Virus record (IMG/VR): IMGVR_UViG_3300044673_000097
Span: 21,380-85,379 of that record
Source of the DNA: a virus
DNA: 64,000 nt
Direction: 5' to 3' (one strand)
How positions within the stretch are numbered: the stretch's first letter is position 1; each line of letters begins with the position of its first letter. A program made the translations under genes and the position numbers. A model generated the notes under the pieces. It saw only the letters and a list, made by a program, of their open reading frames with translations, did no database searches and was not told where the DNA came from. Positions 30,145 through 32,231 of this stretch are shown in pieces.

Positions 30145-30729
30145 TCACGCCGCAGGCTTGTGGAGCAATCCGTTGAGACGCTCGATCTCCGCCTTGAGTT
30201 CCCCGTTCTCCCTCTCGAGTTCCTTGACCCTCTCCTTGAGCCTTTCGACCTCCGATTGCTCCCGCGCTTCCTTGCGCACGGCCTTGACTTCCTGGCACGG
30301 CTTGCGCGCTTCGGGCGCAACGTCGCGTACGATCTGGCGGACCTTCGGCAATCCAGGCGAGCACCCTTCCTTGTCGATGTGGTGCTTGATTGCGGCGACC
30401 AGTTCCGCCTTGCGGGCGGGAGTCGATACCACAGCGGGATGAATCATCGCATGCGCCGCATCGGGGCCGACCAACTTCGCCACCTCGATTCCGTATTCGT
30501 CGATCTGCCTGCACACGTGGTTGTACTGGTGCAGACCGATCACGTTCGGAAACTCGCGCGTCAGGAATGCTGAGAACGTGGCGTGCTGCCCGAGCTTCCA
30601 CGTGCCCTCTTCCTCGATTGCCCGGAGCTGCACAAACACGTCAACGCCTGCGCTGTGCCACGTTGCCAGCAGCCCACGGACGCGATCGACAATCCCCTTG
30701 TACGCTCGCTCGTCGCTCTTCTTGCTCAT
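30145..30729 (-). CDS. Helical protein with C-terminal coiled coil, translationally coupled to cas12f-like gene
   Basis: ATGA overlap with the cas12f stop, AGGAGG RBS; L..I...G.W.....TF..FL motif; EVERLKERVKELERENGELKAEIERL heptads. Confidence 0.75.
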   Translation of the reverse strand: MSKKSDERAYKGIVDRVRGLLATWHSAGVDVFVQLRAIEEEGTWKLGQHATFSAFLTREFPNVIGLHQYNHVCRQIDEYGIEVAKLVGPDAAHAMIHPAVVSTPARKAELVAAIKHHIDKEGCSPGLPKVRQIVRDVAPEARKPCQEVKAVRKEAREQSEVERLKERVKELERENGELKAEIERLNGLLHKPAA

Positions 30730-32231
30730 TGCACGACCTCCTGTTGCGGCGCCGTGAGCGCCTTGGTAACCCGGCCCTTCGTCTTCGCCTTGACCTTCTC
30801 TGCCACCTTGCCCGTGACCCCAGCGTGCCCCGCCTTCGCGAGCGCGTTGACGCATGCAACGATGTCGCGGTGTGCCTGGTGCTCGCACTTCTGGCACTTG
30901 AACCGCTTGACCACTTCGGAGCGCGTGAACCGTCGCCCGTGGTATTCGATCACCTCGACCCGCTGCGTGGCATCGAACAGATTTCCGGGGTCGGCATACC
31001 CGCACGCTGGGCACGTCTGCGAATCATACGCGACGTTCTTGATCTCGACTCGAACGCCGCGCTGCTTGCCCTCCCGATCGACGGCTTGCGCGAGTTCGTA
31101 GAACGGGAAGCTGTGAATCATGCGCCGCACTTCCTCGTGCGCCTCTCCTCCGGTCTTGCGCTCGAATCCTTCGCGCGAGTCCGTCATGTCCGGCCACAGC
31201 AGCAGCCCGACATTGTGAGCAAGGCACCACGCGATTGCGCCCGCCGCAATCTGTCGGATGCGCGTAGTCACGAACCGGGACTCCGCGTCCTCGAGATTCG
31301 TCACCGGGCGCATTCGGCGTTTGACCCCGTGGCCCTTGGACCCGCTGCCCATCGTGTTGATGCACCGCTGGATTGATGCGCGACGGTGCGCGAATCGTTG
31401 CCTCGCGACCACGATGTCTTCGCCGGACACGTTGTGCTCGAAGCCGTCCGCTGTGACGATCTGGACGAACCTCGACACGCCGATGTGCGCAGCGGCCACG
31501 CCCGTGGAGGTCACTTCTGCGACAGGCTCGCCAGACCATGAGATGAGGGCGAACCACTTTCGGCGGTTCTCGTCGTAGGAGATTCCCACGCGCCCGAGTT
31601 TCACCTCGCCCGAGACGAGCTTGCGCCACATTGCCTCGCCGTTCTTTCCGCACGGCGCGACGATGACGCGCGTGGCCTTCTTGCCTGCGCCCAACAGCGG
31701 GACGGTGAGCACGGCACGCGACGGCGGCCCCTCGACTTCGCATGAACGCGAGCGGGCGTAGAATGCGGCGGACGCGTGCCACGACGGGAACGATGCCCGG
31801 TTCGCGAGCAGGTCTTTCAGGTGCTCACCCGTGAACCGGGAGGCAATGTTGTCCATCGTCTCGGCCGTCCAGTATTCGGTCACGTGGACGAAAGCATCTT
31901 CCGGCATCGGGCGCGATTGGCGCTTCGGCTTCTCCCGCTCGGATTGCTCACGAGCAAGCGCCGTCGCCATCTCGTCATTCCACATGCGCTGCAACACCGG
32001 GCCGATCTTCCCGGTGAAGGCGTACTTTGCGGAGTTCCTGTCGTCGGCGCGTCGCTTGAACGCGTCGAGCATCGCCACGGCTTCGGGATACAGCTCACGC
32101 ATGGCCCGATTGAGCGCGGGACCGAGCGTCATGCGCATGGCACGAAGGCGAGGACCAACGTCATCCCACGACGCAAGCTCGGGCTTGACGATTTCGACCT
32201 TCAGCGTTCCGGCTAGCGTCTTGGATTCCAA
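30726..32231 (-). CDS. cas12f: Cas12f/TnpB-family RNA-guided protein, predicted nuclease-dead
   Basis: Colinear similarity to AsCas12f1 as recalled (EIVKP..W..G..LR, SGE....D....KW..ISW, GHG.KR..P..L.D, SQTCPACG, FKCQKC); RuvC-I AAHIG, RuvC-II LWPDM, RuvC-III HRD; TTG start with GGAGGT RBS. Confidence 0.85.
   Translation of the reverse strand: MESKTLAGTLKVEIVKPELASWDDVGPRLRAMRMTLGPALNRAMRELYPEAVAMLDAFKRRADDRNSAKYAFTGKIGPVLQRMWNDEMATALAREQSEREKPKRQSRPMPEDAFVHVTEYWTAETMDNIASRFTGEHLKDLLANRASFPSWHASAAFYARSRSCEVEGPPSRAVLTVPLLGAGKKATRVIVAPCGKNGEAMWRKLVSGEVKLGRVGISYDENRRKWFALISWSGEPVAEVTSTGVAAAHIGVSRFVQIVTADGFEHNVSGEDIVVARQRFAHRRASIQRCINTMGSGSKGHGVKRRMRPVTNLEDAESRFVTTRIRQIAAGAIAWCLAHNVGLLLWPDMTDSREGFERKTGGEAHEEVRRMIHSFPFYELAQAVDREGKQRGVRVEIKNVAYDSQTCPACGYADPGNLFDATQRVEVIEYHGRRFTRSEVVKRFKCQKCEHQAHRDIVACVNALAKAGHAGVTGKVAEKVKAKTKGRVTKALTAPQQEVVQ

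Follow-up and report, generated by a model that had tools for sequence, protein, structure and literature searches.

Naturally dead Cas12 proteins are well documented, guide-directed binding is established for Cas12m, Cas12c, Cas12k, TldR and dCas12f, and a further example may be only a moderate surprise to the specialist. Such proteins are nature's own CRISPR interference, and each new lineage is another route from nuclease to regulator. Here we describe a Cas12f1-like effector of 501 amino acids encoded in a 64,000-nucleotide stretch of DNA (hereafter the window), which was taken from an IMG/VR virus record (IMGVR_UViG_3300044673_000097; 85,379 bp, CheckV 88% complete). A preliminary description, made from the letters alone, had proposed that two of the three RuvC catalytic positions of this protein are inactivated while the rest of the fold is intact. 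Our analysis suggests that the effector, a phage-borne Cas12f1 derivative, probably acts as an RNA-guided DNA binder or silencer that does not cut. This lineage would supply a small binding protein for gene control or base editing; the Cas12f body is kept complete, with both RuvC-III and the zinc ribbon, its stepwise loss of catalytic residues is visible on the tree, the later loss accompanies, in the few loci seen, a change from arrays to fused guides, and it is phage-borne with a conserved partner gene.

The closest described system, both by profile and by whole-length fold, is AsCas12f of type V-F1, whose chains 8j12, 7wju and 8dzj are the best profile matches of the effector family (E about 5e-32) and which shares the zinc ribbon. 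The likeness to type V-F1 extends to the effector's relatives, which have a scaffold resembling a trans-activating CRISPR RNA (tracrRNA), with an anti-repeat, together with CRISPR arrays. AsCas12f carries an Asp/Glu/Asp (D/E/D) triad and cuts DNA, whereas the effector carries His/Pro/Asp (H/P/D) and is phage-borne, its scaffold is fused to the repeat end, as in its subclade, and Cas1 was found in none of the five virus records searched, two of which are fragments. We regard the effector as a Cas12f1 derivative by descent; it fails the defining triad, and so we do not class it as a Cas12f nuclease.

In Cas12m2 (type V-M; 8hhl), the site His317/Asp485/Asp579 binds one magnesium ion and clamps the displaced strand; the protein binds DNA and silences without cutting, reversion to D/E/D bringing no rescue (PMC10442227). 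The effector resembles it in having a His at the RuvC-I place, in keeping the RuvC-III Asp and in being borne on a mobile element. The structural match, however, reaches only Z 13.0-13.2, and no Cas12m chain is among the 23 profile matches at E up to 1. Cas12m2 has an Asp where the effector has Pro at the Glu position, and is described as using a single CRISPR RNA without a tracrRNA, whereas the effector family has a tracrRNA-like scaffold (PMC10442227). The triads listed for the Cas12m family are HEK/HQK, HDD, NED and DND (PMC10442227, PMC11656645); H/P/D is outside this list, while NED, the majority triad in the effector's family, is among them.

TldR proteins are likewise RuvC-inactivated and repress genes by guide-RNA-directed binding, and some TldRs are prophage-borne. 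They derive straight from transposon TnpB, whereas the nearest active relatives of the effector are CRISPR Cas12f proteins and arrays are still found in its relatives. Whereas the TldR guide lies at the 3' end of the gene, the effector stop codon is overlapped by the next gene, with one guide module upstream of the effector and the other beyond the partner gene. The dCas12f that acts with sigma-E (9n9c/9n9m; Z 19.6) is also a naturally dead Cas12f derivative, with RNA-guided control and a conserved partner (PMC13472631). That protein, however, is about 365 amino acids long, C-terminally truncated and has lost part of the RuvC site, whereas the effector keeps RuvC-III Asp456 and the zinc ribbon; it is partnered with an rpoE with an extended C-terminal domain, whereas the neighbour of the effector is a 194-amino acid helical protein and not a sigma factor; and it is found in Bacteroidetes species rather than in a phage setting (PMC13472631).

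A 2023 survey of TnpB/Cas12 proteins reports large altered-site branches within Cas12f, V-U24, V-U43 and V-U44, and describes V-U24 as having a noncanonical RuvC-I site and an associated helix-turn-helix protein (PMC10691335). The effector family may be one of these altered-site groups, and the V-U24 description would fit the family together with its partner. The survey also sets out a path for dead Cas12f in which the tracrRNA and half a repeat fuse and then duplicate into arrays (PMC10691335); the effector locus looks alike. A limited literature search did not find the effector family by name.

A Cas12f1-like effector with two substituted catalytic positions

The effector gene (P0001; window 30726-32231, minus strand) is recognised as Cas12f1-like with a disabled RuvC centre from its open reading frame (ORF) and ribosome-binding site (RBS), a PF07282 match, an AsCas12f-like fold and 20 homologues. 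All 501 codons are open, and a GGAGG motif stands 6 nt upstream of the TTG start, which bears out the unbroken frame and strong RBS of the preliminary description. An identical protein is present on a second long contig. In Pfam, the Cas12f1-like TNB domain (PF07282) was matched at 5.6e-12, with 46.1 bits against a cut-off of 26.3; among NCBIfam models, guided_TnpB scored 76.1 bits on residues 212-466, under its cut-off of 100, and CRISPR_Cas12f2 scored 25.7 bits against a cut-off of 450.

An AlphaFold2 model of the effector (mean predicted local distance difference test score, pLDDT, 83.8) was searched with Foldseek, and AsCas12f complexes led the matches, with 8dzj at the top (E 6e-22). Alignment of the model to chain 8dzj_A with VIA-align covered 388 residues of the 416-residue chain over the model range 5-471, with Z 23.5 and a root-mean-square deviation of 5.0, while other Cas12f structures gave Z values of 17-22, dCas12f 9n9c 19.6, TnpB 16-17 and Cas12m 12.4-13.2. 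According to the model, the effector retains the whole Cas12f architecture, comprising WED, REC, the RuvC fold and the zinc ribbon, and the earlier claim of an otherwise intact fold is upheld by this full-length match. The effector is about 80 residues longer than AsCas12f; in the model, residues 22-99 form an additional long helical hairpin, and residues 418-445 an additional beta-hairpin between the cysteine pairs. The latter is inserted in the TNB zinc ribbon, which runs from Cys407/410 to Cys446/449 (window 30885-31013, minus strand) and whose pairs read CPAC (407-410) and CQKC (446-449). As had been read from the letters, both pairs are present with an insertion between them: none of the 20 homologues lacks any of the four cysteines, the insertion is modelled as strands 418-430 and 433-445, and it has no aligned part in AsCas12f, where it falls in a gap between profile positions 441 and 466.

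The three RuvC motifs lie at the residues first reported, reading VAAAHIG at 245-251 (His249), LLWPDM at 344-349 (Pro347 and Asp348) and HRD at 454-456. A phmmer alignment of the single effector sequence against AsCas12f chains places His249 (codon 31485-31487, minus strand) on the RuvC-I Asp, residue 225 in 7wju numbering; this residue is Ala in the 7wju sequence and Asp in 8j12, and we read the Ala as an engineered inactivating change. The same alignment places Pro347 (codon 31191-31193, minus strand) on the RuvC-II Glu324, and Asp348, encoded by the next codon, on Asp325. The match of Asp456 (codon 30864-30866, minus strand) to the RuvC-III Asp401 comes from the family-profile alignment only, since the single-sequence alignment ends at residue 419. 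Against the Asp225/Glu324/Asp401 triad of AsCas12f the effector thus has His/Pro/Asp rather than an intact D-E-D, and the proposal that two of three RuvC positions are lost is confirmed by alignment. In the 20 homologues the column of His249 holds H in 5, N in 14 and V in 1, that of Pro347 holds P in 5, E in 13, H in 1 and V in 1, and Asp is found at the RuvC-III place in 19. Asp348 had been named as a residue that might substitute for the Glu; because it aligns to the conserved Asp325 of the motif, it is the ordinary residue after the Glu and not a new substitute.

A conserved acidic insertion follows the RuvC-II strand (residues about 354-374; window 31110-31172). It has no counterpart in AsCas12f, its pLDDT is low at 363-374, and it could serve as a lid or a DNA mimic.

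Catalytic substitutions across the effector family

A word-indexed protein search returned 20 homologues at 34-100% identity, all full length except for one fragment. Their triads are NED in 13, HPD in 5, NHD in 1 and VVE in 1, with no DED, and the RuvC-I Asp is present in none of the 20. Searched exhaustively with a family profile, 1.84 billion representatives yielded 3576 matches at E up to 0.001, of which the top 32 lie at E 4e-79 or better and are followed by a gap to 7e-55. We aligned 160 proteins, consisting of the 150 best of the 3576 profile matches and the proteins of the word-indexed search, and at the RuvC-I position these carry N in 86, H in 52, R in 12, D in 2, another letter in 6 and a gap in 2.

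A FastTree phylogeny was built from the 146 rows of at least 400 amino acids, omitting 14 shorter rows, and was rooted on the two DED rows; support values are local only. The 144 rows without RuvC-I Asp split from the two DED rows with support 99 and form three groups, of 54 mostly NED proteins, 38 proteins of the effector's own family (support 100) and 52 mostly HED proteins. The five H/P/D proteins are a clade nested inside the 38-row family (support 100), in which a second small clade shows further losses (IQD, VVD and VVE). All five members of the H/P/D subclade, which are 51-67% identical, keep the His, the Pro and the Asp together with open, full-length frames. H/P/D has arisen three separate times on the tree (P0046, P0130 and the P0001-P0005 clade), which may mean that Pro is preferred at the Glu position after His has become established. 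The preliminary description was right in that two positions have changed, and the tree shows the substitutions to be sequential: the RuvC-I Asp disappeared first, in the ancestry of a very large clade, and the loss of the RuvC-II Glu followed in the H/P/D subclade.

The ratio of nonsynonymous to synonymous substitution rates (dN/dS, Nei-Gojobori) between the window effector and its nearest homologue with DNA, in locus L006 (65% identity, dS 1.96), is 0.15, and other pairs with finite dS give 0.28 to 0.67, values that are rough, as dS is 1 to 2.4 or saturated. This check had been suggested with the first reading of the locus, and as far as such estimates go it came out in favour of constraint. 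All seven effector-family genes with DNA are open. No population variants of the locus were found in four DNA runs, in which only short identical pieces matched. Taken together, the sequence comparisons indicate that the loss of the triad is old and maintained by selection, and is not decay, because none of the 20 homologues has the RuvC-I Asp, H/P/D is conserved, the frames are open, dN/dS is 0.15 and the guide scaffold covaries (see below). The earlier inference of selection rather than decay is likewise favoured by the family pattern, for close homologues that all carried D/E/D would have spoken against it, and the opposite was observed.

Guide-RNA modules and arrays

Upstream of the effector gene lies a guide module (window 32451-32547, minus strand) that was identified by its fold, covariation and a repeat-end motif. 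It consists of two conserved hairpins followed by a cis anti-repeat/repeat stem and ends in the 3' end of the repeat, and thus has the form of a natural single guide. Its predicted fold (-41 kcal/mol, z -2.28) contains both hairpins and a 13-bp cis stem and leaves the repeat end free; the repeat-end motif of this module occurs once in the window. Three imperfect repeats (repeat family D7 and sequence reading; window 32236-32409, minus strand), spaced 70 and 71 nt, immediately precede the gene, and the last one holds the RBS. A second copy of the scaffold (30015-30096, minus strand) was found downstream of the partner gene (fold z -2.09), with hairpin 1 kept by compensatory changes and hairpin 2 shortened. 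It is accompanied by three more degenerate repeat units about 70 nt apart (29780-29953, minus strand), whose likeness to the upstream units is confined to the repeat 3' end and whose layout is that of the related loci L005 and L006. Tandem Repeats Finder reported no repeats between 31800 and 33500 of the window.

The two-hairpin scaffold, which L008 and L002 also have, is located in the window at 32504-32547 and 30058-30096 and recurs in L005, L006 and L007. Across 11 copies from six loci, 95.7% of cells are paired and both-side changes occur in 7 of 13 pairs, whereas none of 500 shuffles reaches the observed level and slid controls pair at most 52%. Upstream of the gene in L008 and L002, an anti-repeat is complementary to the repeat of its own locus and covaries with it between loci. 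The CRISPR repeats of the relatives are 36-37 nt long. The array of L008 holds at least eight repeats of about 36 nt, spaced 70-73 nt, and those of the other loci hold six repeats (L007), two (L002) or several (L001 and L009). A tracrRNA-like scaffold is thus found beside the gene, and CRISPR arrays in the relatives, the window itself having only degenerate units spaced 70 and 71 nt in the place of an array. L008 also has two kinds of guide unit, with short repeat ends about 34 nt apart upstream of the gene (L008:3560-3720) and an ordinary array downstream with 36-nt repeats and spacers of about 35 nt (L008:5427-6100).

In the window and in L005 and L006, which are the H/P/D lineages, the scaffold runs directly into the repeat 3' end, and several copies of this unit flank the gene pair on either side. 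Among the few loci seen, the step from Glu to Pro coincides with a switch from ordinary arrays to fused single-guide units, an observation only, as it sets two lineages against five.

A conserved partner gene

A partner gene encoding 194 amino acids (window 30145-30729, minus strand) follows the effector, its ATG overlapping the effector TGA, and was characterised by this overlap, by tblastn and by a structural model. A homologue lies after the effector in six of the seven other loci with enough flank (L001, L002, L005, L006, L008 and L009; tblastn), and in the seventh, L007, tblastn found none within 2.9 kb downstream of the effector. The model is all-helical (pLDDT 88.6), with a helical N-terminal domain and a long, leucine-zipper-like C-terminal helix. 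A domain scan gave only sub-threshold coiled-coil matches. The best fold match, to ParB/Spo0J, has Z 6.8, which is within the range common for helical models, and a comparison with the viral structure set gave no match at E up to 0.001; leads to DUF3102 in the Atlas (score 0.90, TM 0.47-0.52) are weak. A prediction of the effector-partner complex scored 0.00 and carries no weight either way.

A predicted binder without cutting, and its alternatives

We favour binding without cutting because the RNA-guided binding body is intact, the guide modules are preserved, and the nuclease centre has been missing throughout the history of a large clade. Non-cleavage, a silencing outcome, a metal clamp and a role for the partner are what we infer from these data, along the following lines. 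Short guides would be transcribed from the two flanking modules, in each of which a two-hairpin, tracrRNA-like scaffold is joined to a repeat end and followed by degenerate repeat-spacer units, and would be loaded onto the effector. The loaded effector would bind complementary DNA and leave it uncut, and by its presence there obstruct the transcription or replication of the bound DNA, be it a host gene or a competing mobile element, as is the case for Cas12m, Cas12c, TldR and dCas12f. His249 and Asp456 may play the part that the His-Asp-Asp site plays in Cas12m2, binding a single metal ion and gripping the DNA strand that is displaced.

Several points weigh against this reading. Some TnpB/Cas12 branches in which the RuvC-II Glu is replaced are predicted to draw a Glu from another loop and to be still active (PMC10691335, section 8), and the conserved acidic insertion of the effector family (about 354-374) is a possible source of such a Glu. 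The dN/dS estimates are rough, as given above, and the window repeats are imperfect, so that the guide units could be decaying even with the protein kept. Eight candidate guides had no second match in the 85 kb of the phage (16 nt with at most 2 mismatches, 20 nt with at most 4), four exact 20-mers from candidate guides gave no match in IMG/VR, and a BLAST comparison of the L008 array and both window modules with cultured phages gave only matches at E of at least 2, which is chance level. Among 301 genomes of the order Polyangiales, short matches occurred in 59 for the upstream module and in 27 for the downstream module, with per-genome E up to 0.01, and these were seedless. No RNA run was found to contain the locus.

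Inspection of 18 of the places matched in Polyangiales showed one spacer to be matched over 19 to 23 nt at four of them, within homologous genes for a pyridoxal phosphate (PLP) enzyme. We rejected this gene as a target: the first 9-14 letters of the guide are unmatched, and we consider the match to be chance because GC-rich DNA in this amount should contain any given 19-mer a few times and the four places represent one conserved gene.

The acidic insertion bears on the possibility that the site is rearranged and not dead, with His249, Asp456 and acidic loop residues retaining RNA processing, nicking or single-strand cutting. We consider this unlikely, although the survey both predicts compensated RuvC-II losses elsewhere and allows that conserved altered sites may keep activity (PMC10691335), the replacement letters are conserved (His and Pro in five of five subclade members), H/P/D has three separate origins on the tree, and there is a conserved Glu at 357 and in the GEAHEE stretch. 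The compensated branches of the survey, however, keep the RuvC-I Asp (PMC10691335), which is missing from 158 of the 160 proteins compared here; members with the canonical Glu conserve the acidic stretch just as well, so that it is not specific to the Pro subclade; and in Cas12m2, where a His is likewise found at the RuvC-I position, one metal is bound and no cutting occurs (PMC10442227). If both missing residues and imperfect window repeats are taken instead as signs of a former nuclease gene in decay, with no present function, the open 501-codon frame with its strong RBS and the identical protein on a second long contig have to be explained away, as do homologues that lack the Asp in 20 of 20 cases yet are full length bar one fragment, a dN/dS of 0.15 and four invariant cysteines; we give this explanation next to no credence.

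The remaining alternatives concern what a dead effector might be for. It may be a carrier that brings its ParB- or DUF3102-like zipper partner, or other factors, to a guide-specified site, for instance to turn transcription on or to mark DNA; such a role would be closer to that of dCas12f and its sigma factor than to a plain block. The overlap of the partner ATG with the effector stop and the presence of the partner in six of seven other loci speak for this, as do the known dead Cas12f proteins that work with a partner and the V-U24 group, whose noncanonical RuvC-I is accompanied by a helix-turn-helix protein (PMC10691335). Yet L007 has an effector and an array with no partner within 2.9 kb downstream, the array lies between effector and partner in L002 and L008, the fold matches of the partner are weak (Z 6.8 to ParB/Spo0J; no viral match at E up to 0.001) and DUF3102-like genes are common in phages anyway, all of which makes a carrier role quite improbable. 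An anti-CRISPR decoy, soaking up the Cas12f guide RNAs or tracrRNA of the host, has been proposed in two reviews for phage II-C2 Cas9 with a dead RuvC, and the present element is indeed a phage that carries tracrRNA-like scaffolds; its own repeat-spacer units, and the arrays of six to at least eight repeats in relatives, would however be superfluous for a pure decoy, and we identified no host carrying a related Cas12f system, the family profile having found no relative among 185,579 species represented by one genome apiece. We hold a decoy to be very unlikely.

A wider version of binding without cutting is that effector and co-translated partner form a two-protein, guide-addressed phage system, in which the partner would bridge, spread on or switch the DNA of the host or of rival phages. 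We regard this as speculative and rather unlikely, but if true, the small fixed set of fused guides would serve as hard-wired addresses and not as an immune memory, and dead Cas12f would have been put to partner-dependent use a second time, independently and in viruses.

Phage surroundings

On the same strand, the region 3-6 kb downstream of the effector contains the genes for portal, large terminase and small terminase. In L002 the terminase genes are found about 5.5 kb past the partner, so that the module is upstream of the terminase there too. The small terminase gave the sole sigma-like match, to sigma region 4, at 24.8 bits against a cut-off of 25.7. The phage is present in four rhizosphere metagenome runs. 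The effector-family profile found four loci in viral contigs and six in metagenome contigs, and no relative in the search of one genome per species mentioned above. Relatives of the large terminase, 56-57% identical, occur in two metagenome-assembled genomes of Polyangiaceae (L012 and L013), both at loci without effector and partner, a weak hint from sequence similarity that the host may be a myxobacterium.

Just upstream of the small terminase, a 137-amino acid cysteine-rich ORF (window 28546-28959, minus strand) has a weak match to a phage HNH endonuclease (phrog_1271, 3e-4); an HNH gene beside terminase genes is a common phage layout. An Rfam search over 24000-40000 gave only abiF, under its cut-off: this match spans the full model length (window 28215-28252, minus strand; 27.9 against 37 bits, E 0.2) and lies between the terminase genes and the ORFs upstream. 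On the other side, 1.7 kb upstream of the effector, a DUF1643 protein is encoded at 33926-34612 on the minus strand (PF07799, 1.9e-41). Further away, an 11-nt tandem unit forms two clusters (window 41025-41098 and 41220-41282), with seven listed copies (4+3) and the clusters 162 nt apart, in an iteron- or operator-like arrangement.

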